Origin: Stigonema ocellatum SAG 48.90 = DSM 106950
GTDB taxonomy: Bacteria; Cyanobacteriota; Cyanobacteriia; Cyanobacteriales; Nostocaceae
Assembly (NCBI GenBank): GCA_016903675.1
Contig: JADQBA010000016.1
Span: forward strand, 60,238-100,237
Reading direction: 5' to 3'
DNA length: 40,000 bases
Shown here: one piece after another, positions 4,381-25,820 of the stretch
How positions within the stretch are numbered: position 1 is the stretch's first letter
Layout: the number at the start of each line of letters is the position of its first letter
The notes under the pieces: model-generated
Database searches by the model: none
What the model was told of the DNA's origin: nothing
What the model saw: the letters and a program-made list of their open reading frames with translations, nothing else
Translations under genes and position numbers: made by a program

Positions 4381-4489
4381 TCATCATGTTCCTTGATTTA
4401 TTTATGGGGTTCCCCACCTACTCCCCTATGGGCGTATTGCAAGTAGCCCCTACTTTATTTCAAAAAATCCTTATTCTGACAACTTTGCT

Positions 4490-5776: not shown

Positions 5777-5817
5777 TTCGTACTTAAGAATCCCTAATTC
5801 GTAATAATTAACACAAC

Positions 5818-5852
5818 TACGAATTACGAATTACGAATTACGCATTACGAAT
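5818..5852. repeat. Heptamer tandem array TACGAAT x5 (one variant TACGCAT)
   Basis: tacgaat tacgaat tacgaat tacgcat tacgaat lies directly upstream of the ATPase start at 5857. The same heptamer array recurs at 26542-26576. Confidence 0.9.
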
Positions 5853-5856
5853 CAAG

Positions 5857-7182
5857 GTGACTTCCATGGCAAAGCTCAAAATCTCGAAAAAAATATCCAC
5901 TGCTTTGATAAACTCTCTGAGTGCAGGGGTAGTTCCAAGAGTCGGACTAGAACACATAGCAGTAGGTCGGGAACAAGAACTGAAAAGCCTATTACAAAAC
6001 CTTGACGATATAGCTGAAGGAGTAGCGGCGTTTCGCTTCATAATAGGTAACTATGGTTCAGGCAAAAGCTTCATTCTACAACTGATTCGCAATCATGCCA
6101 TAGAGCAAGGTTTTGTTGTAGCGGACGCTGATTTATCACCTGAACGCCGACTAGCAGGAACAAACAACGAAGGTCTAGGAACCTATCGAGAATTAATGAG
6201 CCGACTTGCCACAAAAACTCGTCCTGATGGTGGTGCTTTAGTTTCCATTCTAGAAGGATGGATTAACAAAATTCAACAAGAAGTCGCCAAAGAAACCGGA
6301 ATGCGTCCTAATGACGAGGGTTTTGATGACCAAGTTGAAGCGAAAATTAGGGAAGTCGTTCAGTATATTGAAGACTTAGTTCACGGATTTGATTTTGGTA
6401 GCGTTGTTATTGCTTATTGGCGTGGCTATCGATTAGATGATGATGCATTGAAGGCTGCTGCTTTACGGTGGCTGCGAGGAGAATTTAGCACGAAAATTGA
6501 GGCAAAAGCAGCCTTGGGAGTACGTGTTATCATTGATGACGATAGTTGGTATGACTACATCAAGCTATTAGCTAAGTTTGTGGCTGAGATTGGCTATAAA
6601 GGACTTGTGGTCTTGCTTGATGAAGCTGTGCATTTATACCAAATATCCACTACAGTGACTCGTGAAAAAAATTACAACAGACTGCTGGGAATCTTCAATG
6701 ATATCATGCAGTGCAAAGCAGAGCATCTAGGCATTGTTATAGGTGGAACAACAAAATTTTTGGAAGACCCAAATCGGGGACTTTTTACAGATGCAGCTTG
6801 GCGAAGGCGTACAAAAGAAAGCCGTTTTGTCACCCAATCTGGTGTTCAGGAATTTTTGGGACCCGTCCTCCGGCTTAACCCCCTCACTCAAGAAGAAATC
6901 CTCACGCTTTTGCAAAGATTAGCTGAGATACATGCTTTAAATTTTGCTTATAACCAAGCTTTGACAGTTAGTGAGTTGAAAGAGTTTGTGCAAGAAATTG
7001 TCAATCGCTTAGGTGCAGAAGCATTGCTCACTCCCGGCCAAATTGTGCGAGATTTTATTAGTGTGCTAAATCTTTTGTACCAAAACCCGAAAATTTCTTT
7101 TGGTGAACTCATTCATGGTACTGACTTTAAACCCACGATTGTAGGTAAAGATGGGGATGATATAGCAGAATTTAGTTTATGA
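5857..7182 (+). CDS. DUF2791 / BrxC-BrxD-type P-loop ATPase (SngB-like candidate)
   Basis: 441-aa ORF. Walker A is FIIGNYGSGKSFILQLI and Walker B is GLVVLLDEAVHL. Size and layout match the roughly 440-aa BREX-ATP-binding-domain proteins that sit between TerB-type proteins and DEAD/DEAH helicases. Confidence 0.7.
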   Translation: MTSMAKLKISKKISTALINSLSAGVVPRVGLEHIAVGREQELKSLLQNLDDIAEGVAAFRFIIGNYGSGKSFILQLIRNHAIEQGFVVADADLSPERRLAGTNNEGLGTYRELMSRLATKTRPDGGALVSILEGWINKIQQEVAKETGMRPNDEGFDDQVEAKIREVVQYIEDLVHGFDFGSVVIAYWRGYRLDDDALKAAALRWLRGEFSTKIEAKAALGVRVIIDDDSWYDYIKLLAKFVAEIGYKGLVVLLDEAVHLYQISTTVTREKNYNRLLGIFNDIMQCKAEHLGIVIGGTTKFLEDPNRGLFTDAAWRRRTKESRFVTQSGVQEFLGPVLRLNPLTQEEILTLLQRLAEIHALNFAYNQALTVSELKEFVQEIVNRLGAEALLTPGQIVRDFISVLNLLYQNPKISFGELIHGTDFKPTIVGKDGDDIAEFSL

Positions 7183-7274
7183 TTAACGAACTGAAGAAGC
7201 AAGGTGATAATTTTGGTAGATACAGCAGCAGTATAGAACCAGCCCTTTCAAGGTGAAACGTAAAAGTGAAGTTT

Positions 7275-7346
7275 TTCTTCGTGTTCTTCGCGTCTTCGTG
7301 GTTCAAAAATATTTTTAAACCGCGAAGGCACGAAGAACACGAAGAA
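7275..7346. repeat. Imperfect inverted repeat (29-nt arms) of the CTTCGTG/CACGAAG dispersed-repeat type
   Basis: ttcttcgtgttcttcgcgtcttcgtggtt (7275-7303) pairs with aaccgcgaaggcacgaagaacacgaagaa (7318-7346). The outer 16 nt are perfectly complementary. Confidence 0.8.
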
Positions 7347-7374
7347 GAAATGCCGAAAAGGGAATCTTCAGCTT

Positions 7375-7955
7375 TTGCATCAATCCCTGACCGATGCCAG
7401 TGGTACTCCTGCGGGTTCTATTCACTTCCAGGGTCGAAATATTAGCTTGAATGATGCTTCTGCTGCCCTCTTAATTAATCAAGGAAGCGGCAATTCAGGC
7501 GATATCAGCGTTAATGCTAGCGAGTCGTTAAAACTGCGGGGAGTTGGCACCGATGGATTTCCGCAAAGTCTATTGCGTGCTGATAACTTCGGTGATATTT
7601 TGGAGTTGACCCTAATTCTGGCTTAATAGAACTGCCGACAAATGTGACCGATCCATCGCAGCAGATAGCTACAGGTTGTTCTACCACTGGTAGTAGTTTT
7701 GTGGCAACGAGACGGGGTGGAGTGCCACAAAATCCAAATCAACAGGTGATTCAAGATCGCACTTGGTCTGATGTGCGCGATATCTCCCCATACCGCAAAA
7801 CACACAAAGTACAAGCACAAATACCCCAATCCCCTGAGGTTCTTGTCCAAGCCACTTCTTGGCATCGCAATGCTGACGGTAAAATTGAATTAATTGCGAC
7901 AAAATCTTCTACTCAGGTCCAACCATCGTTAACCTGTGCAGCAGTTCCCAACTAA
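7375..7955 (+). pseudogene. C-terminal remnant of a filamentous-haemagglutinin/TpsA-like beta-helix secreted protein; frameshifted and 5'-truncated
   Basis: Two ORFs lie in different frames. The first reads ...GSIHFQGRNISLNDASAALLINQGSGNSGDISVNASESLKLRG (beta-helix repeats). The second reads NSGLIELPTNVTDPSQQIATGCSTTGSSFVATRRGGVPQNP..., the conserved C-terminal box of cyanobacterial haemagglutinin-like proteins. Only about 190 aa remain of a family that is normally over 800 aa. Confidence 0.6.
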
Positions 7956-8002
7956 AGCCTAATCGCCTCAACAACAACTACCAATCCACAATATATAATC
8001 AT

Positions 8003-8075
8003 AACCGCAGATGAACACAGATAAACGCAGATAAAACAGACAATTATCTGCGTTTATCTGTGTTCATCTGCGGTT
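8003..8075. repeat. Perfect 31-bp inverted repeat with an 11-nt loop, 17 nt upstream of the helicase ATG
   Basis: aaccgcagatgaacacagataaacgcagata (8003-8033) is the exact reverse complement of tatctgcgtttatctgtgttcatctgcggtt (8045-8075). Confidence 0.9.
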
Positions 8076-8091
8076 AAAAATCCAAAATCCT

Positions 8092-10326
8092 ATGAACAAA
8101 GCCCTACACACCTTTTCTCGACTCGCCCCCTTTATCCAAGAATACATATATAATCACAACTGGACTGAATTACGACCAGTCCAAATAGAAGCTTGTCAAG
8201 CTATATTTAACACCGATGCGCACTTGCTTGTCACTGCTGGAACTGCTTCGGGGAAAACAGAAGCTGCGTTTCTGCCAATTTTGACTTTATTACACGAAAA
8301 CCCCACTTCTACCATAGGAGCATTATACATTGGTCCTATTAAAGCTTTAATTAATGACCAATTTGAACGTCTTAATGATTTACTAAAGGAAGCGGATATT
8401 CCGGTTTGTCACTGGCACGGTGATGTTTATCAAAGTCATAAAAATAAGCTTCTCAAAAACCCTAAAGGTATTCTGCAAATTACGCCGGAATCTCTAGAAA
8501 GTTTGTTGATTAACAAAAATCAAGATTTATTGCGTTTATTTGGTGATTTACGGTTTGTGGTTATTGATGAGATTCATGCGTTCATGGGTTCGGAACGGGG
8601 TTGTCAAATTCTTTGCCAATTAACACGGTTGGAGAAGGTGACGCGAATACAGCCTCGGAGGATTGGGTTGTCGGCTACTCTCGGTGATTATTCCATGGCT
8701 GAGGAGTGGTTGCGTTCTGGAAGTGATAAGTCGGTGATTATATCGAAGGTTGAGGGAGGGAAACGGCAAGTTAAACTTGCTGTGGAACATTTTTATGTTT
8801 GTCGTGATGATGGGGTTGTAAGAGAAATAAACCGCCAAGACGCAGAGGGCGCAGAGAGAAATTATGAGGATGATTTGGGTGTGAGTTTATATGATGAATA
8901 TATTTTTAATTTGAGTAAGTCTCGTAAGTGTCTTATTTTTGCTAATAATAAATCTCAAACTGAGTCTGTGATTGCGTCTTTACGTCAGATTGCTGTGGAT
9001 GAGGGATACCCGGATATTTATCATGTGCATCACGGTAGTATATCCGCACTTTTGCGACAAGCTGCTGAAGCTGCTATGCGCGAACCTAATGAGCCGGCTG
9101 TGACTGCTGCTACACTTACTTTGGAGTTAGGGGTAGATATTGGTCATTTGGAGAGGGTGATTCAGTTAGAGTCACCTATGTCTGTAGCTAGCTTTTTACA
9201 GCGCTTGGGACGTACTGGGAGGCGAGGGGAGGCTGCTGATATGCGGTTTGTTTGTGCTGAAGATGAGTTGTCAGAAGAAGCAACGCTTCCGGAGCAAATT
9301 CCTTGGCAACTTTTGCAGTGTATTGCCATTATCCAACTTTATTTAGAGGAGCGTTGGATTGAGCCGATTAAGCCTCTTAAATATCCTTTGAGTTTGCTGT
9401 ATCAGCAAACTATGAGTATTTTAGCAGCAAGTAGGGAAATTTCACCTGCTGCTCTTGCTCAGGAGGTTTTAAGTTTACCAAGTTTTGCTGCTATTACCAA
9501 GGAGGATTTGAAGATATTACTGCGTTATTTAATTGATTTAGACCATATTCAAAAAACTGAGAAGGGTACTTTGATTCTTGGTTTGGCGGGGGAAAGGGTG
9601 GTTGGAAAATTTCAGTTTTATGCTGTGTTTCCTGATAATCAGGAGTATGTGGTAAAGCAAGGGACGATGGAAATTGGCAGTATTGTTAAGTTATTGCGTG
9701 TGGGATATCAATTTGCCTTGGCTGGCAAATCTTGGGAGGTAATGGATGTCGATTTGAAAAGAAAGATTATTTTTGTTAAGCAAGTCGAGGGTAAAGCTAG
9801 TATTTATTGGCGTGGTGGTAGTGGTGCTATTCATACAAAAGTTTTGCAACGGATGCGGCGGGTGCTGTTTGAGGATACGGAGTATAGTTACTTGCAAAAG
9901 AATGCTCTGGAACGTTTGCAGGCTGTTCGTGACCTGACGCGAAGGGCTGGATTAGATCAACAAAATATTTTGCTAATAGAAAAAGATAAGTGCTGTATTT
10001 TTCCTTGGATGGGTACTGTGGGATACCGTACTTTGGAAAGATTGCTCAATTGCTTTTGTCGAGAGTCTTTGGAAATTAAAAGTATTAGTGGAATCAATCC
10101 CTATTTTTTGACAATTAAGTTACCGAAGAAGAAGTTTAAGTTTCTTTATTCGGAAATTGTTTCCTTGTGTGAGCAAAGAATTACTTCTGAGAGTTTATTA
10201 AGTAGTTCGGAACCGTTGGAAAGACAAAAATATGATGAGTTTATCCCTGATAACCTTTTACAGAAAGCATTTGCGAGCGATTATTTAGATATGTTGGAAG
10301 TGAGGCAACAGGTGGCGATATGGTAG
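8092..10326 (+). CDS. DEAD/DEAH-box (Lhr-like, SF2) helicase (SngC-like candidate)
   Basis: 744-aa ORF. Motif I is TAGTASGKTEAAFLPIL, motif II VVIDEIHAF, motif III SATLG and motif VI LQRLGRTGRRG. A long C-terminal extension is present, as in Lhr-type helicases. Confidence 0.85.
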   Translation: MNKALHTFSRLAPFIQEYIYNHNWTELRPVQIEACQAIFNTDAHLLVTAGTASGKTEAAFLPILTLLHENPTSTIGALYIGPIKALINDQFERLNDLLKEADIPVCHWHGDVYQSHKNKLLKNPKGILQITPESLESLLINKNQDLLRLFGDLRFVVIDEIHAFMGSERGCQILCQLTRLEKVTRIQPRRIGLSATLGDYSMAEEWLRSGSDKSVIISKVEGGKRQVKLAVEHFYVCRDDGVVREINRQDAEGAERNYEDDLGVSLYDEYIFNLSKSRKCLIFANNKSQTESVIASLRQIAVDEGYPDIYHVHHGSISALLRQAAEAAMREPNEPAVTAATLTLELGVDIGHLERVIQLESPMSVASFLQRLGRTGRRGEAADMRFVCAEDELSEEATLPEQIPWQLLQCIAIIQLYLEERWIEPIKPLKYPLSLLYQQTMSILAASREISPAALAQEVLSLPSFAAITKEDLKILLRYLIDLDHIQKTEKGTLILGLAGERVVGKFQFYAVFPDNQEYVVKQGTMEIGSIVKLLRVGYQFALAGKSWEVMDVDLKRKIIFVKQVEGKASIYWRGGSGAIHTKVLQRMRRVLFEDTEYSYLQKNALERLQAVRDLTRRAGLDQQNILLIEKDKCCIFPWMGTVGYRTLERLLNCFCRESLEIKSISGINPYFLTIKLPKKKFKFLYSEIVSLCEQRITSESLLSSSEPLERQKYDEFIPDNLLQKAFASDYLDMLEVRQQVAIW

Positions 10327-12397: not shown

Positions 12398-12841
12398 CTA
12401 CTTTGTCATCCTATCTAACGCAGATGGAGATGGAAATCTGCTAACTGCCATCAATGCTTGCCGCTCTATAATCCGCTCATTGTTGTTAAAATCAAAAATG
12501 CGTACTGTGACTTCTCCGATTTCTGTCTGTGGTTGAATCACTACCTCATCTAATCGAAAATGCTCTCCCCAAAAATCTCTACGTGGGTTAAAAAACCTAA
12601 CAAGTTCTCCAGTGCGCCAATTAATAGATCCCAGGTCGGTTCCTTTTTGGAGATTACAGAAAATACAAGAATAGGCAAGGTTATCTGCTGTTGTTGCTCC
12701 ACCGTGTTTAACGCTAATGATATGGTCAATTTGATAAGCTGAAGACCTGTCTGCTTCTAGAACATAGCAGTATTCGCACAAAAAATCAGCACGGTTGGCA
12801 ACATTGCGTCGCAGTTCTAAATTAATGTAAGGACGAGGCAC
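12398..12841 (-). CDS. HNH endonuclease
   Basis: 147-aa ORF with CEYC...QIDHIISVKHGGATTADNLAYSCIFCNLQKG (CxxC...H-N-H...CxxC). Confidence 0.8.
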   Translation of the reverse strand: MPRPYINLELRRNVANRADFLCEYCYVLEADRSSAYQIDHIISVKHGGATTADNLAYSCIFCNLQKGTDLGSINWRTGELVRFFNPRRDFWGEHFRLDEVVIQPQTEIGEVTVRIFDFNNNERIIERQALMAVSRFPSPSALDRMTK

Positions 12842-13209: not shown

Positions 13210-13719
13210 ATGAAAGAACAAACGTACTATTTCAAGGAAGCAGGTGGCGATATGCGAAGCGCTCTTGATGTTGCCAGATACTTCCTGTGTCGCATTGATA
13301 GGGATGCAGGTGATACAATATCCCCTTTGAAGCTTCAAAAGCTTGTGTATTATGCTCAAGCTTGGAGTCTAGTACTTAGAGATAAACCATTATTTTTTGA
13401 AAAAATTGAAGCATGGTCCCATGGTCCTGTGGTATATGAAGTCTGGAATGCTTATAAAGAGCATAGACATACTGCTATTCCTGTGCCAGATTCCTACGAT
13501 TTATGCGATCCCGATTTTCCTGATGATGAGCTTGAAGTACTTGAAGAGGTCTGGAATGTTTACGGGGAGTTAAGTGCAAGACAACTTGAACACTTGACCC
13601 ACACTGAAGCACCATGGTTGGATGCTCGAAAAGGTATAGATCCAGGCGAAAAGTCTCAAGAGGTTATTTCTCACCAGAAAATGAAATCTTACTATGAAAA
13701 ATACGTAGTTGAAGATTAG
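13210..13719 (+). CDS. Panacea (DUF4065, SocA-like) domain antitoxin candidate; more likely start at 13252 (MRSALDVARYF)
   Basis: The motifs ALDVARYFL, PLKLQKLVYYAQAWSLVL and EAWSHGPVVYEVW are characteristic of DUF4065/Panacea. Confidence 0.7.
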   Translation: MKEQTYYFKEAGGDMRSALDVARYFLCRIDRDAGDTISPLKLQKLVYYAQAWSLVLRDKPLFFEKIEAWSHGPVVYEVWNAYKEHRHTAIPVPDSYDLCDPDFPDDELEVLEEVWNVYGELSARQLEHLTHTEAPWLDARKGIDPGEKSQEVISHQKMKSYYEKYVVED

Positions 13720-14976: not shown

Positions 14977-15114
14977 TTTTCAGCATAGGAGTTGATTGTC
15001 CTACTGATTTTCTAGACTACAAACTTAAGTTATTTTAGAATTTAACCTTAGAGGTAGTACGGGGATAAAAATACGTCTAAACTTTCCAACATTTTTAAAG
15101 GGTTTGAATCTAGC

Positions 15115-16641
15115 TTGCGCTTCGGGCAGGAACGAAACGAGGAGCTTTACCGTCAGCACCTCGAAGTCGTTGAAGAACTTTATAAATGCAAGCTCAGGGA
15201 TTTGGTCAAACCCTGGAATTCCGAATTTTCCTCGCAGATGAAGCTAATTCGCCTGCGCGACCAAATCCGAGATTTTTTCGGACGCGATGAAGTTAACTTT
15301 GTAGCGATTGACGGCACCTGCAAGGCAGAGGAGACTACCCAATTTTTGTTGTTTTACGCGGGAGCCTATGGAGCCAGGGGGTCTCTCGACCTCAAGGGCA
15401 TACCCCCAGCGTTACGATATCATAAGTGGTCGCTGGAACAAGATGTGTCAGTTGTGGCGCAGGTGCCAATCCCCTATGCGGAATTAGAGGATGTGCTGGA
15501 AGAAGAACGCGACCCTTTTGCTGTTAGCGATCTAGAAAAGACGAACCTTGCAGGGTTGCATACTCTATTGATGCAATTATCGGAAGTATATTTGGCTTAC
15601 GATACCGTAACCAGTAGTCGCACAGACGCGCCAGACTTCGTACTGTTGGACCAGTCAATCTCCTCTGCTATGGCATCGAACATGGTGCAGCCTTCTGCTG
15701 TGCGGATGATTGGTAGTCCTTGGAGAGAGCGCCAGCTGACAGAGGCTGATGCCACAATTGCCTTAGCTCATCCCTTTAATTCAGATTTAGGTATTCCCAC
15801 CGTTAAGCGGTTTCGTCAGTATACAGGACTTTTAGCTCGAATGCAGCAAGGTGGAGGCACTGTAGACCTGGAACAGGTTGCTGGCGAGGAAGGTTTGGAA
15901 TTGGACGACCTGAACTCCGGTGTTGCCTATTTAACTAAGCGAAATTTAGCGCAATTATCATCAGATGGTAAGCGTCTGACTTGGATGGGACCGCACGATA
16001 TCGAAGCTTCTTGGGCATATACCAAGGCTGTTTTTCGACAAATTTGCGAAAAACTGTTCGTGGAGAAAGACCCCACAGCTTTGATGTATACCGTAGAAAC
16101 AGATGAAATGCGGCGACGCCACTGGATGAGTCCCCCCGATATTAAGTTTTTAATTGGGGTGGGTTTGCGATCGCTCATTGAGGAGTGCTGGAAACGCAAT
16201 GTATTGCTGGTAGGGTTGGTTAAAGATTCGTCTTCGGCGTATTTCACCCGCAACTATTTGGGGGTAATGCGATTCCTTGACGTGCTTCCGGAGTTGAAAA
16301 GCTTTTCTCGCCCCTTACCATCAACTGACCGCATTGCTTTAGAAATTTTACCGCTAATTAACGATGAACTAGAATCTCCTTGGTCAACGGTTGAGTTTGA
16401 CGGCGTATTTATGACGATGTTTGTCCGCCAAGAACCCGACGGTACTTGTGACCTCAGTGGAGTTAGGGGAGATATCCTCGCGCCCGAATGCCTGACGGCA
16501 CGTTCCTTGGCACAGTTTTACTTAAATCGAAAGCCATCGGGACCGTTGATGGGTCATGTGATTTTCGTCGAGCGCTTGCTGCCGTTTATAAGCAAATCTT
16601 GGCTGCTGGGAAGGTGCGTGTCTATCAGCGTGTTGATGTAA
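15115..16641 (+). CDS. NurA-like nuclease (TTG start inferred; the C-terminal 30-50 aa are doubtful)
   Basis: 508-aa ORF with NurA-type motifs FVAIDGTC, FVLLDQSISS, LVGLVKDSSSAYF and PSTDRIALEIL. The frame opens at 15100 and the first possible start is the TTG at 15115. Confidence 0.6.
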   Translation: MRFGQERNEELYRQHLEVVEELYKCKLRDLVKPWNSEFSSQMKLIRLRDQIRDFFGRDEVNFVAIDGTCKAEETTQFLLFYAGAYGARGSLDLKGIPPALRYHKWSLEQDVSVVAQVPIPYAELEDVLEEERDPFAVSDLEKTNLAGLHTLLMQLSEVYLAYDTVTSSRTDAPDFVLLDQSISSAMASNMVQPSAVRMIGSPWRERQLTEADATIALAHPFNSDLGIPTVKRFRQYTGLLARMQQGGGTVDLEQVAGEEGLELDDLNSGVAYLTKRNLAQLSSDGKRLTWMGPHDIEASWAYTKAVFRQICEKLFVEKDPTALMYTVETDEMRRRHWMSPPDIKFLIGVGLRSLIEECWKRNVLLVGLVKDSSSAYFTRNYLGVMRFLDVLPELKSFSRPLPSTDRIALEILPLINDELESPWSTVEFDGVFMTMFVRQEPDGTCDLSGVRGDILAPECLTARSLAQFYLNRKPSGPLMGHVIFVERLLPFISKSWLLGRCVSISVLM

Positions 16642-17483
16642 GAAGTAGTTTAGGAAGCTTTATCAGGAATTTTTGGAGTGAAGTCAATACTTCTAACTTT
16701 GCAGCAAAGGATTTGCAGTCAGTTAATAATTTAATCAATGAGTTAAGTGGAATTGAACAAACATTATTAGAGGCTGATGTTGAAAGTATTTTGACCCAAA
16801 TTAGAGATACTGCTCAAAATTTAGGTGCTAGAGCAAAGAAGGCTCTAAACGATTTACATGATACTCTAAGTAGTGCATGGGAAAATTCCCGTCGTAATCC
16901 TCCTCTTCCAGAAGAAAGTCGAGTCACAGTTCCTGAGTTAGTGTCTCAGATAAACGACTCTAGAAAAGATAACCTTTTTGTGATTCAGTCCCATGACCCT
17001 AATGAACTACGCTCTTTTAGCCGCTGGCTTGGTAACGAAGCTTATGAACAGCGTAGGCGAACAGGGCAAATTAGTCCTTTAGTCAGTTTTATATTTGATG
17101 AAGCTGATGAATTTATTCCTCAAGACGCTTCAGGAACTTATAGAGATTCAACCGAAATTGCAATGACTTTAGCCCGTCGGGGACGAAAATTTGGTTTGGG
17201 AATTGGTATTGCAACACAAAGAATTACCTACCTTGATACCAGCATCATAGCTCAACCCCATACATATTTTGTTTCTAAACTACCACGCAAATCTGACCAA
17301 GACCGAATTCGTGACGCTTTTGGTTTGAGTGATGAAATGTTTCGTCAGACAGTAAAGTTTAAAAAAGGTGATTGGCTCTTGGTCAGTTATGATGCGACAG
17401 GTTTAGAAGCAGTGCCGTTGCCAATTCATACTCCAAACGCGAATGAGAGGCTGGCGAATTTTCTACAAACTTATTCCGATTAA
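16488..17483 (+). pseudogene. HerA/FtsK-type ATPase, C-terminal half only (no Walker A found)
   Basis: Walker B is FIFDEADEFIPQD, followed by ARRGRKFGLGIGIATQRITYLD and FVSKLPRKSDQDRI, typical of the HerA C-terminal half. The frame is closed by a TAG at 16464-16466. Neither other frame encodes a GxxGxGKS motif upstream. The ORF overlaps the NurA ORF by 154 nt. Confidence 0.55.
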
Positions 17484-17521
17484 TTTTGAATTCCAAGATG
17501 GAATATTTTTTGAAAAATCGA

Positions 17522-18541
17522 TTATGGATATCTAAGTTTAACACCACTACCACCATTGGGAGTTGGACAATCCCAGCGAAGGTCGCAAATAGCACAATCT
17601 TGTTCGCTAATAGCTCCGGGAACTGCTGGATACCATTGGTCATTGCAACGAGCTTGTTCAATCTGTACTACAGTCTGTGCAAACTCATTTACTGCATCAT
17701 CAATCTCATTGGGCGTGATGCTAACCTCCAGTAAAGCATTAACTGGGCGCTTAGAGGGACAAGTTGGACCATCAAGCTCATTAAGGAAATACAAAATAGC
17801 TTTTTGAGGTAAAACCCCATGTTTTAGCTCATAAAGTTTGGCATAAACCCGCATCTGGAATTCATAGTTTTCTAGGTCTTTTGGATTGACATTCAACAAA
17901 CTACTGCCTTTGTAATCCCACATTTCACAGTCGGCTGGGTTTCCTGCTGCGTCAGGTGCATCTACCAAAAGGTCAACAACACCATGAAGAATGTGAGTAT
18001 TGCGATCCGCTTGCAATCTATGTTCCGTATCTTTAACTCTTTTGTAAAGTGTTGGTCCTTCAAGGGCATTAAAATATTGAAGCAAACGTACAGCTTTGAG
18101 TCGAATATCTTGGGTTATTGCTCGAATTCCTTGGCTTTTTAAGCCATTTTCAACTTCAACAAAATACTTGACAATATCACTAGGAGGTATTGGCTTTGTT
18201 GATTTTGCTTTTTCTGCGTGTCTAAGCTCATCAAAGTAGTCAAGAATTTCTTCATCTTCTAAGATGTTGCAATTATCTGGCAGAGTACCCTTTGTTGAAG
18301 GGTCAATTTTTCCATGGAAATGGGTATGACAGCGATCTAAAACTTGGTGAAGAATAGTGCCAAAGTAAGCCTGGGTTTGATAAGCAGGTGCATATTTATG
18401 GACATTAAAAGCCCCATACTGACGAGCGCATCGTCTAAATGCGACTATATCTTGAGTAACGCTATAACGACGTTTTATATTTGGTGTTTTGGGTAAAGAG
18501 ATTGAAAAACCTTGAAAAGGTTTTCTTCTATTTGTGGTCAT
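17522..18541 (-). CDS. PD-(D/E)XK nuclease of the Cas4/AddB (RecB-like, Fe-S cluster) type
   Basis: 339-aa ORF. Motifs are GVVDLLVD...CEMWDYKGSS (D...ExK-type DYK motif) and QMRVYAKLY (QxxxY). One N-terminal Cys (FRRCARQYG) plus the C-terminal CAICDLRWDC (Cx2Cx5C) form the four-Cys signature. Confidence 0.75.
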   Translation of the reverse strand: MTTNRRKPFQGFSISLPKTPNIKRRYSVTQDIVAFRRCARQYGAFNVHKYAPAYQTQAYFGTILHQVLDRCHTHFHGKIDPSTKGTLPDNCNILEDEEILDYFDELRHAEKAKSTKPIPPSDIVKYFVEVENGLKSQGIRAITQDIRLKAVRLLQYFNALEGPTLYKRVKDTEHRLQADRNTHILHGVVDLLVDAPDAAGNPADCEMWDYKGSSLLNVNPKDLENYEFQMRVYAKLYELKHGVLPQKAILYFLNELDGPTCPSKRPVNALLEVSITPNEIDDAVNEFAQTVVQIEQARCNDQWYPAVPGAISEQDCAICDLRWDCPTPNGGSGVKLRYP

Positions 18542-18552
18542 AAATTTTTCCT

Positions 18553-20778
18553 TTATATCGTAATAGCGAACATATTCCGCTTAAATTCCACATGATTACG
18601 GTTGGGTACAGCAATATGATTTTTAATCTGGTCTTGCGTACCAATTAGAATCAAACCGTATTGTGCGCGTGAATAAGCTACATAAAGCAAACGAATGTCA
18701 TCTTCTATCGCTAAATCTTCTGGTTGTCTAGTATCTCTTTGATAAAGAGCTTGTCGAAATGGAGCTAAGGTTTGCTCAAGCATTTGTGCGGCTCCAACTT
18801 TCCCTTCTTGACCTTACTTTGTAACAACAAATACAAAAGGAAACTCTAAACCCTTTGATTGATGAATTGTCATAATGGGTAAATAGCCTTGAGGAACAAT
18901 GATTTCCTCATCTTCATCATCATCAATACCCGTCTCAATTAAGTAGCTGATAAACATGTTATAAAATTGATTGATAAAACTCTCATCAATGTCATTTCCA
19001 GCAGTATTAGCTCGTAAAACATCTAGGTTAAAACTGTTATAACCTTCAAAAAGACGAGTGACTTTAGAAAGACGTGAGTTTCTTACAGTATCTTGTTTCC
19101 ATGTCCGAAATGGTTCCCGCGAAAGAATACGATAGATGATTTCTAATAAGTTCAGATTCAGAAATCGACCTGGGTTATTTGGGCTTAGACTATTGGCACA
19201 TATTTGTGATAAAGCTGCATTACTATTGTTTAGGTAATCATCTAGTAAATTTGTAGGGACGTTAGGGTCATTTCTCACGCTATCGAGAGTATTGAACCAT
19301 TCCTGAACAGTGTCAATCCACTCCAGAGGTCTTCCCTGTGGGTCTATTTTCGATTGAAAAGTGTGATTTGGGTCAATCACTTGAACCAGTGCTGCTAGTA
19401 AACACTGAACTTCGTCACTCTCCATGAAAGATTTAGACCGAGGATTATAGATAGGAATCTCACGTTGCTGGAATGCTGTAATAAAGGGACCAGCATTTCG
19501 AGCCGAGTCTTTGGCACTTCGTAGCAGTAAAACGCACTGACTTAGATCGGAGATAATTTTATCACCTATCAAATGATTAATCGTAAATTCAGCAACTGCA
19601 TTAGCCAAGTCTCCTACTTTCTTTGTTTGAATCCAAGAAACAGCAGGATATGCTCCAGTAATAGATGAGGCAGCATTGACTGGTTTTTTACCTGGAGCAC
19701 GTACTCCTCGTGCTGTCATTTCTGGAAATGAAGTGATGTATTGGTTGAAAAATTTAACAATATCAGGATGAGAACGGTAGTTGTTATCAAGCTGAATTTG
19801 ATGAGGATATTTACTATACTTAGCCAGACAAGCTTCATCAAAATTCACCATACAGGTTACATTTCCTCCTCGGAAACGATATAAAGCTTGATCGTCATCG
19901 CCGACTACTGTGATATTGTGCGGTGGTTGATGGGCTAAAGCTAAGTAGATTTGCTCTTGAATTGGGTTAGTGTCTTGATATTCATCTACTAATACGTATA
20001 ACAAAGGAGGATTTTGGTCACTTCCCTGTAAAAACTGTTGACCTATAAGAGAGGTGATAAATTCAAGAAAACTAGCTTGGAGATGAGCGAAGTCGCAACG
20101 ATAGTTTTCCTTTAGAGCTTGAGCATACTGCTGATAAAACTTTGCTAAAGTTGCCCAGTGTCCACCAGCACTGAGCATTGCTTGTAAATTAACGTAGTCT
20201 TCTACAATGTGATTAAAAAGTGTGACTGCTGACTTGGCTCGCTTCCATTTATTAGGAGGATAGTTGGTGTTACGCCAATCGCGCACAGCATAATTAAAAT
20301 GTTGCCAGAAAGCTAAATCTTGAAATTTTGAAATATCAGCATAGCGGTAGGTAAATAAATCCTGTTCTACCTGATCCAGAAGGCGAACATTTTGATAGCT
20401 TGGATAGCGGTATTCTTGGAGAATATCATTACATAAACTATGTAGTGTTCCTATTCTGATATCAGCCAGATCAACATTTTTCAGGTTATGATCTGTATTT
20501 TGTAGTGCTACTAGGTAAGTCGCCAAGCGGTCTTCAAGGTTACGTGCTGCTTTAGCAGTAAAAGTAGTTAAGAGAATAGAGCGAGGTTGGACACCATTTA
20601 CACAAAGCAATTTCAAAGTTCGTGTTACTAGTACTTCGCTTTTGCCCGATCCTGGTCCCGCTAGAAGCCACAAGGGACCATTGCCATACTCCACAGCTTC
20701 TTTTTGCTTCTGATCAAGGTCGTAGCCACGTGCTGAAGGTTGAGCAAGACATATGTGGAAAGTGTTCAAATCAATCAT
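18553..20778 (-). pseudogene. UvrD/Rep-family SF1 helicase interrupted by a single in-frame TAA (18814-18816)
   Basis: The 654-aa ORF carries LAGPGSGKSEVLV (motif I), LVDEYQDTNPIQ (II), VGDDDQALYRFRGG (III), NYRSHPDIV (IV) and MTIHQSKGLEFPFVFV (V). It ends at the TAA. The 76-aa ORF 30 nt downstream is in the same frame and carries motif VI, RLLYVAYSRAQ. Confidence 0.75.
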
Positions 20779-20790
20779 TTCGTACCCTTA

Positions 20791-21045
20791 TTAGCTCTCC
20801 TCATTTTTTCTCCGACCCATATTTGAACGGGCTACCCTGCGTTGCTCAAGAAGTTCATCACGCAGTAAATTTTGCTGCTCAGGGTCTTGCCAATCCCTAA
20901 TCAATCGTTTTAGTGCCACGTTCACCATGTCTTGTAGGCTTGGGGCATCGCTAATTTGATGAGGAGCAAGTGATTGCTCGAACGAGTGTTTAATCCTGTG
21001 CAAGTCCGCATAAATTTCATTTGGAATCCGTGCTTGATAGGGCAA
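20791..21045 (-). CDS. Small hypothetical protein leading the UvrD-nuclease operon (possible DNA-binding regulator)
   Basis: 84-aa ORF, 12 nt upstream of the helicase start and divergent from the DGQHR gene. I recognise no firm motif. Confidence 0.45.
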   Translation of the reverse strand: MPYQARIPNEIYADLHRIKHSFEQSLAPHQISDAPSLQDMVNVALKRLIRDWQDPEQQNLLRDELLEQRRVARSNMGRRKNEES

Positions 21046-21162
21046 TTGTATTACCGCAGCTATATATCTGACCCCAGCATAAATACATACAACTAATTTC
21101 TGCTACCATGTATGCTTGTATGCAAGCTTATGCAAAAATGAAATTAACTTATAGGAGAAGTA

Positions 21163-22260
21163 ATGTTTGAACTTGTCATAAAAGGTGTTCCCGTACACCG
21201 TGGTCCTAAGCGCGAACATATTACTTATGTTGCAAGTACTACTTTTGGTGACATTGCTCGACTATTAAACGATGGTCACCTCTATATCCCCAACATCCCA
21301 GACTTGCCGGACTTTGCCCAACGTAAACTTAACCAGACACGAGTCAAGGCGATCGCCCGGTACATTCTGGAGACTTATCAGGATGGGACTACATTTTTCC
21401 CGCCAATTTGTGTTAATGCTCAACCATCACCAACTTACAAAGATGGTAGCCTCCATCTTCCTTACCAGTCACTTGGATTGCGCTTAACTGATGGTCAACA
21501 TAGATGTTTTGGGATTCGTCAAGCACTCCAAGATATCCAGACGCAACCGTCAGAGTATACCATCATCCTTTCACAATTAGAAATTGGCGTGTTAATATAT
21601 GCTGGACTGTCTTTAGAGGAGGAGCGTCAAGCTTTCCGCGACCAAAACCTGTTAGTCCAACGACCAAGCGTGTCGCTATCCCATGCTTTTGACAGGCGAT
21701 CGCCCACAGTTTTGATTGCCAAAAATTTACTAGAGCGAGTTCCTCATTTTCGCGATAATGTAGAAATGTTTGAAAGCGGATTGGGTCAACACAATCCCAA
21801 GTTGCTAACGCTTGCCACTTTGGTGACTGCAACCCAACATATGTTTTCACATTTGCAGTCAAAAGAGAATTTAGAGCCATTAGTTGATTGGGCAACGGCA
21901 TTTTGGACTGCAACAGCGAGTGTGTTACTCGATGAGCCTTGGACGATAAAAAGTAAAGAGGAACGTGCAGCTCAAAGACAGGATTCATTAGTAGTGAGCG
22001 CTCCTATATTTCAGGCATTGGGGATGTTGGCTCACGACTTATATCAAGAGGGTGTTCCAGCAGAAAATTTTGTCCAGTGGTTAAGCAGACTGCAAGAAAT
22101 AGACTGGCGGCGCTCTAATCAACTATGGCAAGAGCGAGGTATCACACAAGTTAGAAGTCAGGGAGAAGCAATTATTCCAAATACTAAGACAACTATTAGG
22201 GCTTGTCATAAGGTACTAAGAGAGTTGATTGGTGTTGCACCCGTTGGTGGTGTGATTTGA
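21163..22260 (+). CDS. DGQHR-domain protein (DndB/DpdB-like, ParB-fold)
   Basis: 365-aa ORF with the literal motif LRLTDGQHRCFGI. It is preceded by ataggagaag (SD-like) 4 nt upstream. Confidence 0.8.
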   Translation: MFELVIKGVPVHRGPKREHITYVASTTFGDIARLLNDGHLYIPNIPDLPDFAQRKLNQTRVKAIARYILETYQDGTTFFPPICVNAQPSPTYKDGSLHLPYQSLGLRLTDGQHRCFGIRQALQDIQTQPSEYTIILSQLEIGVLIYAGLSLEEERQAFRDQNLLVQRPSVSLSHAFDRRSPTVLIAKNLLERVPHFRDNVEMFESGLGQHNPKLLTLATLVTATQHMFSHLQSKENLEPLVDWATAFWTATASVLLDEPWTIKSKEERAAQRQDSLVVSAPIFQALGMLAHDLYQEGVPAENFVQWLSRLQEIDWRRSNQLWQERGITQVRSQGEAIIPNTKTTIRACHKVLRELIGVAPVGGVI

Positions 22261-23096
22261 GCAAATTCCAATCCTAAAACTTCTTGAAAGACATTGCGGT
22301 TACTAAACTTGCTGTCATAGCGCTCGTTCCACCACAACCAACCAGTAGAATCTGCCCAAACATTGTGCTTTTTGAGTACTTCTATACGGGTTAATGCCAG
22401 TCCTCCTAAGACAAACTCCGGTCGGCTCCAAGCCAATAGTTCATCCAACTCTTCTATAGACAAGCCAAATTTAAAGCCCGTGGTTCTAGTTTTATCAACT
22501 TTCAATAGCCCTCCCAGTGCAATGTACTCATAGCCAATGTCCCGATAAACACTAATCAAGGGAGCCAGGAAGCTTTTAGGTAATTCGTAATGTGGAGGAA
22601 AACAATCTAACTGGGGAACTACCTTTTGATGCCAATTGTAGATTGCATACCCAACTTGAACTACGCCAATCAAAGCATAGGTTCTTTGTTTATGCCAATA
22701 TTCTTCCCAAGTTAATCTGGCTAAATATAAAGACAGTAATGGCTCACCAAAAATGTCTTGCGTGAAAACAAAATCAGGACAAAATTGGTCACAACGTTCG
22801 AGATATTCTTTAACCTTCTGTCGTAAATGCTGTTCAGATGCCAAACGTAACTCACGCATCCACCGATGATTACGGTATTCACAATACTGTTGGTAGTACC
22901 AAGGGAAATCTTGATTTGTAAAAACACCACTGTCTATAAAAAAGGGCTTTTCCAAATCACGAATACTCTGAAGGAGCTTATTGTAACATGAAACAGGTGC
23001 AAGAACACCATAATTTCCTTCTATTTTTTTTAATCTTTTTAATAAACCTAACCAGTCCATAGAAAAAACTGGTAAAAATTTATTATTTAAATTCAT
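22206..23096 (-). CDS. Divergent TGT-fold (DpdA-like) protein lacking the Zn-binding motif
   Basis: 296-aa ORF. FFIDSGVF, YEYIALGGLL, FVLGGLALTRIE and WADSTGW parallel GDCGAFGY, YDYIAIGGLA, LFGVGRIE and SFDSAGP in the neighbouring 711-aa protein. No CxCxxC...H motif is present. Confidence 0.45.
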   Translation of the reverse strand: MNLNNKFLPVFSMDWLGLLKRLKKIEGNYGVLAPVSCYNKLLQSIRDLEKPFFIDSGVFTNQDFPWYYQQYCEYRNHRWMRELRLASEQHLRQKVKEYLERCDQFCPDFVFTQDIFGEPLLSLYLARLTWEEYWHKQRTYALIGVVQVGYAIYNWHQKVVPQLDCFPPHYELPKSFLAPLISVYRDIGYEYIALGGLLKVDKTRTTGFKFGLSIEELDELLAWSRPEFVLGGLALTRIEVLKKHNVWADSTGWLWWNERYDSKFSNRNVFQEVLGLEFAQITPPTGATPINSLSTL

Positions 23097-23165
23097 ATTT
23101 TTAATATTTAATTTCTTATTATAAGATTAACATTATTCTGGATGATAATCCTCTAAGTTTTCTGT

Positions 23166-25301
23166 TTAATTTTCACTATTTAGAAATTCTTGTAAACGAT
23201 TATAAAATATATAAGTATTGTGAAAACCACGTCTACGATTGCGGTCATTTCCTCTAAAAATAACTGCTTCTACCCCAATTTGTTCACAGATTTTACACTT
23301 ACATTCCTGCCAAGGTCTTGCTTCTAAAAGCTCTCTGTACATCTGAGTGTGTTGTCTTAAACGTCTGGCTTTAGCTGCTGGGTTGACCTTACCGTTGCGA
23401 GGTAATTCTAACAACTCGTCGAAAGCAAGCAGTTTATTGAGCGCATCATCTATCGATATTTTATCTTTATCATATTCTCGGATTGCGAAGAGTGCGTCTT
23501 GCTCAAGCAGCTTGAGAGTTTCACGCTCATAACCATTTTCCAATAAATGCTTAATTCGTTGTGAGTGCTTATCTACAAAAGGAATACGGACAGCAGCGTA
23601 ATTTTTCCCGCTCATAGTATGGTAGTTGTTTACTGCATCAAACCAAGCTTTACGCAACGGACCTGCAGAGTCAAAGCTAGTAACTCCCAAATGGCGGAAA
23701 TAAGGAATAGCTTCAATACGCCCCACCCCAAATAAATGTAGTCTTGTTGTGGGAGTCAAATGTGGATAAACCTCCTGTAGAACTTCTAAAATTTCTTTAG
23801 TTGGTGTTCTTGCTAGTCCACCTATAGCAATATAGTCGTACCCCATTTCAACCAGTGCTTTCACTGCATCAGCATATTTTTCTGGATTCCACCCTTGTGC
23901 AACACCTATAGGAGTAAATGTATACCCTCTGCTGTCATGTTTTCTGATAAATTCCTCTGCATTTCGCAAAGTAAGGTCATAGCGTTTCTCTCTTACTCCA
24001 GGTTGTGCAAAAGGTCCCACAATTAAGTGGTCAATACTGACTCCGTAATTGAAGCCCAGTTGCTCATAATAATCCAAAATTTCTACAGTATTATATGGAG
24101 GTTCTTCCTGTTTTATATATCCAAACGCTCCACAATCTCCCATGATTTTTCCTGGGAACCTAACAAAGTTGCGGATACCTCCTACTGCTTCTATGTCATT
24201 CTTTTTTGATTTTCTTTTATCAACAACTACTTTAGACACTAAAATTCCATGATAGTTCCGTTCTCCATATATTTCATGGGCATAGATATCGTCTGTATAT
24301 GCATTACGATTGGGACTAAATTTATCTTGTTCAAAGACATAGCCAGCATCTACTTTATCATCCCATTCTGGAATAAAGTATTGCATTTGTAAATGCTTAT
24401 TAACTGCTGGACGTAATTCCAGAAAGCGATGTAAATCTTCTTCTGTAGATTTTGGCTTACTTTTTGTTTGATTTTTAACTCTTGACTTTTTTTCTTTTGA
24501 AAATGAGATTCCTAAAGGTAAATATAATTGATTTGGTTGCTTATCTAAAACATCTTTTAGTATTTCTGGCTCTCTGTATAAATTTTGCAATAAATCAGAG
24601 TTCTCTCTCACTTCATTGGCAATCAGCTTGAGCAGATGTCCTTTTAATCCCACTAATGCACAGCTAAAACGTGATGCATCGGCATTGGAAAGAGTAAACA
24701 CTTCAGACTTAGCTTTGTCTGAATCTATATAATTTATGCTTTTATTTGAGGCGAAAAATATGAAAGTTTGGTTAGTATGAGTCTCAACAGGTAAGTTTAA
24801 AGCACGCAGGTATTTATCTCCAAGCAAGACAAACACCAAATCGTATCCAACAACTGCTTGTTTAAATGCCTCATGTATTCCGAGAAAATCTGCCCAAGAA
24901 CAAACCTCATTACTCTTCATCGAGTTGAATGTGACGGAGTAGGGAACGATAACTCTGTCTTCAGGGATTAACCCATACCCTGCTGAGATGATTTTCACAT
25001 CTACCACATATGATCCAAAGCGCTTACCGTCAGGTTGCCTCAGGCTGCGCAGGATATTTACACCCTCCATTGCCCGCATATGCTGTAAACCCGTGTACAT
25101 CTGAGCTGCTGGACAAGAAAACTCAGATAGTAATTGAGAGCGTTCGCTTAACTTCTTTGCGTCTTTAAAATCTTCGATTGTGAGCTGGTTTGTTGGCTTA
25201 AAGCGTTTTTCCCCTGTACAAGAGGTAATTACTAAAACGCGAGGCTGTTGCTTGATATGATTTAACGCAACAGCAGTTGTTGTTTCAAATAATTTAGTCA
25301 T
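23166..25301 (-). CDS. dpdA: Fusion protein: N-terminal domain of unknown function (about 330 aa) joined to a C-terminal DpdA-type guanine transglycosylase (TGT fold)
   Basis: 711-aa ORF. The C-terminal half has GDCGAFGY, DYIAIGGLA, HLFGVGR and SFDSAGP, plus the zinc motif CKCKICEQIG-(x)-FH (CxCx2Cx21H). The N-terminal half has VLVITSCTGEKRF, AAQMYTGLQHMRA, IISAGYGLIPEDRVIVPYSVTF and VFVLLGDKYLRAL. The ATG overlaps the queD stop by 8 nt. Confidence 0.65.
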   Translation of the reverse strand: MTKLFETTTAVALNHIKQQPRVLVITSCTGEKRFKPTNQLTIEDFKDAKKLSERSQLLSEFSCPAAQMYTGLQHMRAMEGVNILRSLRQPDGKRFGSYVVDVKIISAGYGLIPEDRVIVPYSVTFNSMKSNEVCSWADFLGIHEAFKQAVVGYDLVFVLLGDKYLRALNLPVETHTNQTFIFFASNKSINYIDSDKAKSEVFTLSNADASRFSCALVGLKGHLLKLIANEVRENSDLLQNLYREPEILKDVLDKQPNQLYLPLGISFSKEKKSRVKNQTKSKPKSTEEDLHRFLELRPAVNKHLQMQYFIPEWDDKVDAGYVFEQDKFSPNRNAYTDDIYAHEIYGERNYHGILVSKVVVDKRKSKKNDIEAVGGIRNFVRFPGKIMGDCGAFGYIKQEEPPYNTVEILDYYEQLGFNYGVSIDHLIVGPFAQPGVREKRYDLTLRNAEEFIRKHDSRGYTFTPIGVAQGWNPEKYADAVKALVEMGYDYIAIGGLARTPTKEILEVLQEVYPHLTPTTRLHLFGVGRIEAIPYFRHLGVTSFDSAGPLRKAWFDAVNNYHTMSGKNYAAVRIPFVDKHSQRIKHLLENGYERETLKLLEQDALFAIREYDKDKISIDDALNKLLAFDELLELPRNGKVNPAAKARRLRQHTQMYRELLEARPWQECKCKICEQIGVEAVIFRGNDRNRRRGFHNTYIFYNRLQEFLNSEN

Positions 25302-25683
25302 CTTCGTACTCTACCCAAGAATTAGGAGTTTCTGAAACCGCAACCTTCAGTTGTACATCAAGCGGCACCCGCTTCTTGGTTTCGTCATAAATATATTTAG
25401 CAATCATCTCAGATGTTGTTTCATATTCGGGAGGCATGACTTCGTTTAGGATGCAGTGGTCAAGTCCTCCCTTACTTACATCTTTCTTTGCCCAACGTAG
25501 AGTTCTGAAATCCGAGACCATCGCTGGATGCGGACAATACTCGGACAAATGCAGCGAATATGACGATGCCTCGATTCGCACTTTATAAGTGTGCCCGTGC
25601 ATTCTACCACAGGGTCCGTCGTAATCCTTAATATAATGAGCGCTATCAAACGTAAATTCTGTAACGAGTTTCCATTTGGGCAT
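25294..25683 (-). CDS. queD: 6-carboxy-5,6,7,8-tetrahydropterin synthase QueD (PTPS fold); start at 25683 preferred over the track start at 25743
   Basis: MPKWKLVTEFTFDSAHYIKDYDGPCGRMHGHTYKVRIEA carries the Cys and His-x-His catalytic and zinc signature of QueD/PTPS. Starting at 25683 gives 129 aa, a typical QueD size. Confidence 0.85.
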   Translation of the reverse strand: MPKWKLVTEFTFDSAHYIKDYDGPCGRMHGHTYKVRIEASSYSLHLSEYCPHPAMVSDFRTLRWAKKDVSKGGLDHCILNEVMPPEYETTSEMIAKYIYDETKKRVPLDVQLKVAVSETPNSWVEYEDD

Positions 25684-25820
25684 TTTATGTATCCCTATTA
25701 AACATAAATTGCTTTTTAGCAAAATAAGTTCATCTTTATACAATAAAAGTATTCGATTATACTTTTCTTAAAAAAGAATATTCGATATTACCGTGAATGT
25801 AAATACTTTGGCACAAACTG

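Follow-up and report, generated by a model that had tools for sequence, protein, structure and literature searches.

The block at positions 15073-25743 of the DNA analysed here, a 40,000-nucleotide stretch of contig JADQBA010000016.1 of the cyanobacterium Stigonema ocellatum SAG 48.90 (the window), is probably a modular, non-canonical Dpd-type island of 7-deazaguanine restriction-modification (R-M) that has lost its effector arm in this copy. It is a variant of known Dpd, distinguished by effector modules of the helicase-nuclease type, and is described neither by PADLOC nor in the literature searched. As judged from the state of its genes, the island is most likely modification-only here.

Gene calls and orientations were taken from the list of open reading frames (ORFs) and from Pfam, PADLOC and NCBIfam scans. 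For comparison, we surveyed 80 loci (designated by L and a number) around DpdC-DpdA fusions in GTDB species genomes, mapped the window proteins onto them and clustered all ORFs into families. Reverse anchoring covered six sampled contexts of the NurA-like family and four of the nuclease family. The nine genes listed in a preliminary description of this DNA (NurA-like, HerA fragment, Cas4-like nuclease, UvrD, 84-aa protein, DGQHR protein, protein similar to the tRNA-guanine transglycosylase (TGT), DpdA fusion, queD) are all present and in that order. Its reading of the block as a Dpd-type island is also supported; a DpdA domain, a DpdC domain and a linked queD gene were all found. The features of the block are as follows.

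15073-16584, plus strand: NurA-like nuclease gene, damaged; first ~503 of ~606 codons (tblastn against L028)
15115-16641, plus strand: called ORF of the NurA-like gene, 508 aa (ORF list)
16563-16590, plus strand: deletion junction, ~1.2 kb lost; two tblastn alignments meet in different frames
16488-17483, plus strand: called ORF holding the C-terminal third of HerA; PADLOC HerA model PDLC01055 matched at positions 382-527 of 532 only
16563-17483, plus strand: HerA remnant, C-terminal ~305 codons; 61% identity to residues 286-590 of L028 HerA
17522-18541, minus strand: Cas4/AddB-type PD-(D/E)XK nuclease, 339 aa; PF12705, 54.9 bits against a cutoff of 22, E 1.6e-14
18553-20778, minus strand: helicase of the UvrD/PcrA family, superfamily 1 (SF1), one frame of 742 codons with a TAA; PF00580, 3.4e-54
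20791-21045, minus strand: conserved 84-aa protein; found in 16 of 80 loci
21101-21128, no strand assigned: non-coding block GCATACAAGCATACATGGTAGCA (minus-strand reading) in the promoter region that separates the divergent 84-aa and DndB-like genes
21163-22260, plus strand: DndB-family DGQHR (ParB-fold) protein, 365 aa; PF14072, 4e-80; TIGR03187
22206-23096, minus strand: divergent paralog of DpdA, apparently of TGT fold (TIM barrel), 296 aa; hhalign, AlphaFold (AF2) model, Foldseek
23166-25301, minus strand: DpdC (DUF6884)-DpdA fusion, 711 aa, intact; NF041059, PF21818, PADLOC
25294-25743, minus strand: QueD (6-carboxytetrahydropterin synthase, preQ0 pathway); PF01242, 3.4e-28; TIGR03367, 8e-21

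Modification genes

The 711-aa protein is a fusion of two Dpd domains, and its sequence equals at 100% identity that of a protein from a metagenome-assembled genome of Stigonema ocellatum SAG 48.90. The N-terminal DUF6884/DpdC-like domain (residues ~20-178 of 711) is matched by PF21818 at 34.3 bits against a cutoff of 30 (E 3e-8) and by the PADLOC DpdC model at 3.4e-8. The DpdA domain (residues 306-705) is matched by the NF041059 equivalog at 474.2 bits against a cutoff of 200 (E 3e-142) and by PADLOC DpdA at 1.9e-126. In an alignment of 15 sequences the window protein keeps every invariant column, including D389, D424, D544 and C667/C669/C672/H694, and with them the conserved Asp residues and the Zn-site Cys and His residues of the DpdA domain. 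By homology, the fused DpdC domain is a predicted converter of dPreQ0 into dADG.

The queD and fusion genes overlap by 8 nt (25294-25301). Both this overlap and the intactness of the modification-side ORFs had been noted in the preliminary description, and both are confirmed, the ORFs being full-length and agreeing in length with their homologs. The true start of QueD is likely the ATG at 25681-25683, which would yield a 129-aa form as in the homologs. No ORF for queC or queE was called in the window; the cyanobacterial locus L028 has both between queD and the fusion. In L003, L004, L007 and L001 the queD gene upstream of the fusion is a 71-aa C-terminal remnant (at about 9793-10008 in L003), whereas in the window it is full-length, hence decay strikes different island genes in different genomes.

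The 296-aa protein has no direct family match in the Pfam, PADLOC and NCBIfam scans. Its family aligns in hhalign with the DpdC-DpdA alignment (95% probability, E 4.6e-8) and with the ~310-aa TGT paralogs (82% probability, E 1e-5, 194 columns), which score PF01702 at 7e-15. The AF2 model (pLDDT 76) is a TIM barrel, and the top nine Foldseek matches in the PDB are all the TGT of Zymomonas mobilis; a PDB sequence search with the family profile produced nothing usable. Taken together, the evidence points to a TGT-like fold. D55, in a DSG motif, and D249 are conserved, and the Zn subdomain is absent. The family is tiny, with 14 matches among 1.8 billion representatives, and is confined to cyanobacteria. 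The gene occurs in 29 of 80 loci, immediately after the fusion in 27 of them. It sits in the dpdD position; identity with DpdD was nonetheless rejected, since true DpdD has ~700-770 aa and the 296-aa protein is TGT-like. The gene converges on the DndB-like gene with an ORF overlap of 55 nt (22206-22260). Its C-terminal tail is variable and the homologs are 17-21 residues shorter (275-279 aa), thus the last ~20 codons in the window may be non-functional read-on. A short second TGT paralog recurs throughout the fusion-anchored systems.

The ParB-fold protein scores 113.8 bits with TIGR03187 (DGQHR; cutoff 58.85), has the DGQHR motif at residue 110 and matches PADLOC DndB at 1e-39. By analogy, it is a probable functional counterpart of the DpdB ATPase. 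A natural 1205-aa triple fusion of DndB, TGT and DUF6884 (P0071) ties the DndB-like protein to the transglycosylase. The DndB-like gene is present in 17 of 80 loci and travels together with the 84-aa gene.

Putative effector genes

The preliminary description had placed lesions in both motors. This is correct for HerA, where Walker A is lost, and for UvrD, which contains a TAA, but it is incomplete, as the NurA-like gene is broken as well and had not been flagged.

In L028 the intact pair consists of a 606-aa NurA-like protein followed by a 598-aa HerA. The window remnant is 75% identical to the former over residues 2-503 (tblastn). The position of the L028 GTG start is ACG in the window (15073-15075), with a stop just upstream, and the first usable start is a TTG at 15115. 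At the other end the C-terminal ~100 residues are deleted, including the nearly invariant block with the consensus GYPDPLHKAD. The junction joins residue ~503 of the NurA-like protein (...GHVIFVERLL) out of frame to residue ~286 of HerA. The HerA remnant keeps Walker B (FIFDEADEF), while the N-terminal ~285 residues, with the start of DUF87 and the P-loop/Walker A, are gone. In L028 HerA, which matches the PADLOC HerA model at 1e-93, PF01935 is seen at residues 162-231 and P-loop-type matches at 189-227. Thus, of the HAS-barrel, Walker A and Walker B expected of a HerA, the window copy lacks the deleted Walker A region. There are no further stops or frameshifts in either remnant. Judging from the 1.2-kb deletion and the altered start codon, the HerA/NurA-like pair is dead.

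The window NurA-like protein has no single-sequence Pfam match. However, 20 of 28 family members match PF09376 (NurA) at E<=0.1, the best at 2e-5 and all below the gathering score, and no other Pfam family recurs across the members. One member (P0134) is named "NurA domain-containing protein" in UniRef. The AlphaFold model (pLDDT 82, pTM 0.85) has a three-strand/helix/strand core around the invariant D80 and D193; an RNase H-like core would fit both this secondary structure and the conserved Asp residues. The family profile has no match among PDB sequences. Overall, there is moderate support from these comparisons for the 606-type protein being NurA-like.

In the UvrD gene the TAA is codon 655 (18814-18816), where all seven homologs have a Leu codon (CTA, TTA or CTT). 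Motifs I (AGPGSGKS), II (DEYQD), III (GDDDQ) and V (TIHQSKGLEF) precede the stop and motif VI (LLYVAYSRA) follows it. The 87 codons past the TAA are still near-identical to those of L003 (Scytonema NIES-4073). The homologs are uninterrupted, with 737-759 aa, and the window copy does not encode the complete set of motifs I-VI. The 654-aa product, being devoid of motif VI, should be inactive.

The adjacent nuclease gene is apparently the only intact one among the effector genes. The protein keeps C38 and the C-terminal CxxCx5C (a four-Cys set), D190, E206, DYK209-211 and the YxxQxxxY residues Y226/Q229/Y233. It is 78-88% identical to its cyanobacterial homologs and 62% identical to the homolog from Acidobacteriia.

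Conserved gene order around the fusions

Six cyanobacterial loci show, in intact form, the gene order fusion, TGT-like, DndB-like, 84-aa, UvrD, Cas4-like nuclease. The UvrD/nuclease pair follows the same core in L003, L004, L007, L019, L037 and L042 at 68-88% identity (in L042, UvrD is followed by a nuclease that is matched only in part, where the locus ends). An intact cassette of the UvrD type was found on a conjugative plasmid of 235 kb; the plasmid cassette of Scytonema NIES-4073 spans NIES4073_01280-01340. In L028 the slot after the core is filled by the NurA-like and HerA genes, and in sister cyanobacterial loci it is held by DpdE-DpdF-DpdG or DpdJ-DpdK, with strong PADLOC matches.

HerA and UvrD occur together with a DpdC-DpdA fusion in six of 80 loci (L046, L066, L067, L073, L076, L080), all non-cyanobacterial. 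The typical string is fusion, ~400-aa protein with a faint NurA match, HerA, ~610-715-aa protein, UvrD and nuclease. It is seen in L066 (Singulisphaera), L073 and L076, as well as in L088 (Acidobacteriia) and L090, which were reached from the nuclease; the taxa are Planctomycetota, Acidobacteriia and other phyla. In L080 the string has an extra helicase gene before UvrD and the locus ends before the nuclease position. In L046, unlike the string, the UvrD/nuclease pair lies upstream of the fusion. In loci such as L088 and L090, a convergent TGT paralog of ~300 aa and a DEAD helicase often go with the string. L087 combines a 606-type NurA-like gene, two HerA genes, UvrD, nuclease, fusion and a short TGT in one string. 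Between the families of the ~400-aa (F17), ~610-aa (F20) and 606-type NurA-like proteins hhalign yields no significant relationship, and homology is not claimed; the same holds for F15 and F8 against the DndB-like and TGT-like families. PDB sequence searches with P0234 and the ~400-aa protein gave nothing usable.

A different fusion-anchored architecture is observed in L049-L065, L071, L072 and L074 (Paenibacillus, Bacillus, Chloroflexota). It consists of a 172-aa protein, the fusion, a 264-aa protein, a ~310-aa TGT paralog, a 258-aa protein and a ~1060-aa protein with a faint DpdH match. After these come queC/D/E or DpdE, and sometimes DpdD, DpdK and a ~1550-aa protein.

Reverse anchoring gave a similar picture. 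In each of the six contexts sampled for the NurA-like family (one each from Fimbriimonadales, Thermodesulfovibrio and Anaerolineae, and three on other metagenomic contigs), HerA is adjacent and TGT and DUF6884 genes are in the same operon. Four of the six are a compact unit of DUF6884, NurA-like, HerA and TGT, the commonest context of this family. The compact operon (L081-L086 and L092; for example, L083, 3326-8572, on Thermodesulfovibrio contig JANXBR010000004.1) comprises a small DUF6884 protein, a NurA-like protein of ~615 aa, HerA and a TGT of 390-420 aa. It has no DndB/DpdB-like gene. The neighbours of some compact operons include queD, a YhhQ/Vut_1 transporter gene, an integrase or DarTG. 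The compact operon looks like a minimal Dpd-like system. Its TGT in Thermodesulfovibrio shares 40% identity with the DpdA domain of the window.

All four sampled nuclease contexts are in a Dpd-gene setting, and three contain a DpdC-DpdA fusion. The remaining one contains DpdD together with a DndB-like gene and PLD genes, and has no TGT within 10 kb. In L089 (ENA contig_13631; 7800-9989 and 1339-3592) the UvrD gene beside the nuclease is split into pieces of 264 and 419 aa, and a second UvrD and a DpdD gene are also fragmented. This is either a parallel case of effector decay or a series of long-read frameshift errors.

The preliminary description had named chance co-occurrence of these genes as the outcome that would speak against it. 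The synteny recurs in other genomes, both in the fusion-anchored survey of 80 loci and on reverse anchoring. Since gene order conserved across phyla implies more than chance, the chance-neighbour hypothesis is rejected.

The 84-aa protein and the intergenic element

The DndB-like gene is co-present in 15 of the 16 loci with the 84-aa gene, which lies just upstream of whichever effector module a locus carries. The 84-aa protein may be a ribbon-helix-helix (RHH) regulator; this is a weakly supported guess from faint RHH-type Pfam matches. A PDB sequence search with the family profile returned nothing usable, and hhalign shows no significant relationship with other small proteins (F23, F51, F12).

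The element GCATACAAGCATACATGGTAGCA contains tandem GCATACA half-sites, and its core is invariant in all eight aligned sequences (the window and seven loci), though the flanks have diverged and the proteins are only 45-65% identical. A local inverted repeat was detected around 21101-21128. GCATACAAGCATACATGGTAGCA is a candidate operator, to which either the 84-aa or the DndB-like protein might bind.

Proposed function and alternative explanations

For what DpdA, DpdB and DpdC do we rely on the literature (PMC10164549, PMC5699537). By analogy, QueD would feed the preQ0 pathway, with the remaining steps supplied by genes outside the window. The DpdA domain would exchange guanine in DNA for preQ0, the DndB-family protein contributing the help of a ParB-fold NTPase, and the fused DpdC domain would turn preQ0 into the amide, dADG. 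The 296-aa paralog might be a second, non-Zn subunit of the transglycosylase, and the divergent operons might be controlled by the 84-aa protein through the conserved intergenic block; both suggestions are speculative. Intact relatives have, after the core, one of several interchangeable effector modules, namely, DpdE-F-G, DpdJ-K, UvrD/Cas4-like or HerA/NurA-like. Of these, the UvrD/Cas4-like pair would resemble a split RecB/AddAB-like enzyme and the HerA/NurA-like pair a translocase-nuclease, and both would degrade unmarked DNA, as synteny suggests.

Several points weigh against this interpretation. The restriction role of both pairs is inferred from synteny and domain logic only. The NurA assignment is built on sub-threshold Pfam matches, and the DndB-like protein does not match any PADLOC DpdB model at E<=0.5. 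The sequence comes from a metagenome-assembled genome (MAG), so the single TAA could be an error. No recognised effector is present in 33 of the 80 fusion-anchored loci, an upper bound, as several of them are short or cut by a contig end. Finally, the NurA-like and HerA genes of the window are inverted relative to L028, and no cyanobacterial locus of the sample has both pairs, so the former pair may be debris of a separate system. There is also the matter of timing: as the damaged genes have no lesions beyond those listed, the damage looks recent, and the retention of the modification half, for which the preliminary description had suggested a restriction activity grown costly, may simply mean that there has been too little time for decay.

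The likeliest of the alternatives is that there were two systems. The NurA-like and HerA remnants would then derive from a once-independent compact Dpd-like system that lay by chance next to an island of the UvrD type, was lost through a deletion or a rearrangement and never formed the second arm of that island. We consider this conceivable, if somewhat doubtful. The prevalence of the compact four-gene unit among the NurA-like contexts is in line with it, as are the inverted orientation and the lack of sampled cyanobacterial loci with both pairs; moreover, in the closest relatives of the UvrD type (L003, L004, L007) the nuclease gene is followed by small ORFs that are unrelated. However, a remnant of a second TGT or DUF6884 gene was searched for and none was found anywhere in the window, and in other phyla HerA, NurA-like, UvrD and nuclease genes co-occur with a single DpdC-DpdA fusion. 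Either way, the pair would belong to a Dpd-type system.

Another alternative is that the motor-nuclease pairs serve modification or repair, opening DNA at the expense of ATP in place of DpdB and processing abasic or nicked intermediates. DpdA does need an ATPase partner in vitro (PMC10164549), and in the four-gene operons, which have no DndB/DpdB-like gene, HerA could be the required ATPase. On the other hand, a DndB-like protein is already encoded both in the window and in its cyanobacterial relatives, the position of the pairs is precisely that of the canonical restriction genes DpdE-G or DpdJ-K in sister loci, both pairs include nucleases with conserved catalytic residues, and the modification genes are intact here despite the loss of both motors. 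This explanation therefore appears unlikely.

It is still less likely that the lesions are artefacts of MAG assembly and the island is functional in the living organism: while the source record is a MAG from a non-axenic culture, the UvrD lesion is a single base with undecayed codons downstream, and the many split genes of L089 resemble assembly frameshifts, a clean 1.2-kb deletion fusing two genes out of frame is unlike a base-calling error, and three independent lesions hit effector genes with none in the five neighbouring modification-side genes.

We thus retain the reading of the block as a modular Dpd-type island with a lost effector arm. A broader proposal, which we put forward tentatively and hold to be somewhat short of an even chance, is that of a 7-deazaguanine R-M family, not found described, in which a helicase- or translocase-nuclease restriction arm replaces DpdD-K, the window being a decayed member. 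The arm would be HerA with the ~610-aa NurA-like protein, and/or UvrD with the Cas4-like Fe-S nuclease. The compact form (DUF6884, NurA-like, HerA, DpdA-like TGT) is seen in at least three phyla (Armatimonadota, Nitrospirota and Chloroflexota), and a six-to-eight-gene form in Acidobacteriota, Planctomycetota, Verrucomicrobiota, Pseudomonadota and Bacillota; the cyanobacterial core would swap modules freely.

Comparison with known systems

The closest known system is Dpd of Salmonella enterica serovar Montevideo (dpdA-K). It shares with the block a DpdA-type transglycosylase, DpdC/DUF6884, a DndB-related ParB-fold partner and a linked queD, the modification module being followed by ATP-dependent helicase and nuclease genes (PMC10164549, PMC5699537). 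In the block, however, DpdC is fused to DpdA, and there is an extra TGT-like paralog and the 84-aa protein. The Salmonella DpdB is a ParB-fold ATPase with a DGQQR motif, whereas the ParB-fold protein of the block is of the DndB/DGQHR type. The effectors also differ, being UvrD with the Cas4-like nuclease and HerA with the NurA-like nuclease. None of the ten ORFs of the block matches the PADLOC models of DpdD-K, hence the block is not a canonical Dpd system.

HerA-NurA pairs are known from archaeal end resection and from bacterial defence. The family seen here has the same arrangement of a ~600-aa HerA (DUF87, Walker A/B) adjoining a NurA-like nuclease. However, the partner, at ~610 aa, is far larger than classical NurA and is dedicated to operons with TGT and DUF6884, and in the window both genes are truncated. 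The UvrD/nuclease pair resembles AddAB/RecB and Cas4 in combining an SF1 UvrD-family helicase with a PD-(D/E)XK nuclease that has the iron-sulfur Cys set C...CxxCx5C and QxxxY. Here, however, the helicase (~740 aa) and the nuclease (339 aa) are separate small proteins, there is no second helicase-like subunit, and the pair resides in a DNA-modification island rather than in a repair or CRISPR locus.

The Dnd/Ssp systems also have a DndB-family DGQHR protein and a modification module decoupled from exchangeable effectors, including HerA-type motors (PMC10853773); in the DndFGH effector a HerA-like domain is part of DndH. A phosphorothioation reading of the block was rejected, as it has no PADLOC match to DndA/C/D/E or SspA-D, only to DndB, and the chemistry predicted for it is base exchange. 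The BREX-related capture (BRC) locus (PMC12839542) likewise combines a HerA/FtsK translocase with a TGT-family enzyme in a predicted defence locus. BRC has PglZ, a BrxC-like protein, a STAND NTPase, DUF4007 and GNAT, none of which is in the block, and has no DpdB/DpdC homologs. The UvrD gene matches many PADLOC models of GajB, which is generic UvrD homology, and a Gabija reading was rejected because no GajA (OLD/ATPase-Toprim nuclease) is found by PADLOC among the ORFs of the block.

The preliminary description had not recognised this combination as a named system, and we agree. None of the models in PADLOC 2.0 represents the NurA-like, TGT-like, 84-aa, ~400-aa or ~610-aa proteins. A literature search did not find DpdA with UvrD in this sense, or NurA and HerA with a transglycosylase in defence, although the supplements of the founding Dpd papers may list such variants.

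According to reviews, the enzyme cutting unmodified DNA in the 11-gene Salmonella Dpd system has not been identified. If our reading is true, there are much simpler versions of Dpd, in which the nuclease is obvious and one motor suffices (in the simplest case, DUF6884, NurA-like, HerA and TGT), and the reading of the 7-deazaguanine mark, as well as the degradation triggered by its absence, would become directly testable. A mining study of 2025 reported a single cyanobacterial dpd island, without any restriction genes. Our survey demonstrates that cyanobacterial DpdC-DpdA fusions are common and bring interchangeable effector cassettes, canonical and not, rather than being "restriction-less" as concluded there from one genome. 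It also yields two conserved accessory genes, for the TGT-like paralog and the 84-aa protein, and an operator-like DNA element. The window itself would be a natural case of effector loss with the modification genes kept, which bears on the origin of orphan DNA-modification modules.

Genomic setting

The block is situated in a defence island. Upstream of it are genes for a DUF815 ATPase, a TerB-C protein, a BrxC/D-like ATPase and an Lhr-like helicase, and between this cluster and the block lie a PIN gene, an HNH gene and a SocA/Panacea pair. The window also encodes giant WD40 proteins and a tocopherol cyclase, which are cyanobacterial hallmarks. Promoter and terminator scans gave results at chance level.

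The upstream cluster (3055-10326) is apparently a second, separate defence cluster. It contains a DUF815 AAA ATPase, a TerB-C protein with a coiled coil, a BrxC/D-family ATPase (PF10923, 4e-167), a 103-aa ORF and a DEAD helicase of the Lhr-like type. It may be Shango-like (TerB, ATPase, helicase).

The segment 11460-14159 contains small toxin-antitoxin-like and nuclease genes, a typical filler of defence islands. The PIN gene overlaps an ORF of 116 aa that lies upstream of it, the HNH gene (12398-12841) has a neighbour of 84 aa, and a 146-aa ORF comes after the SocA/Panacea gene (13210-13719).

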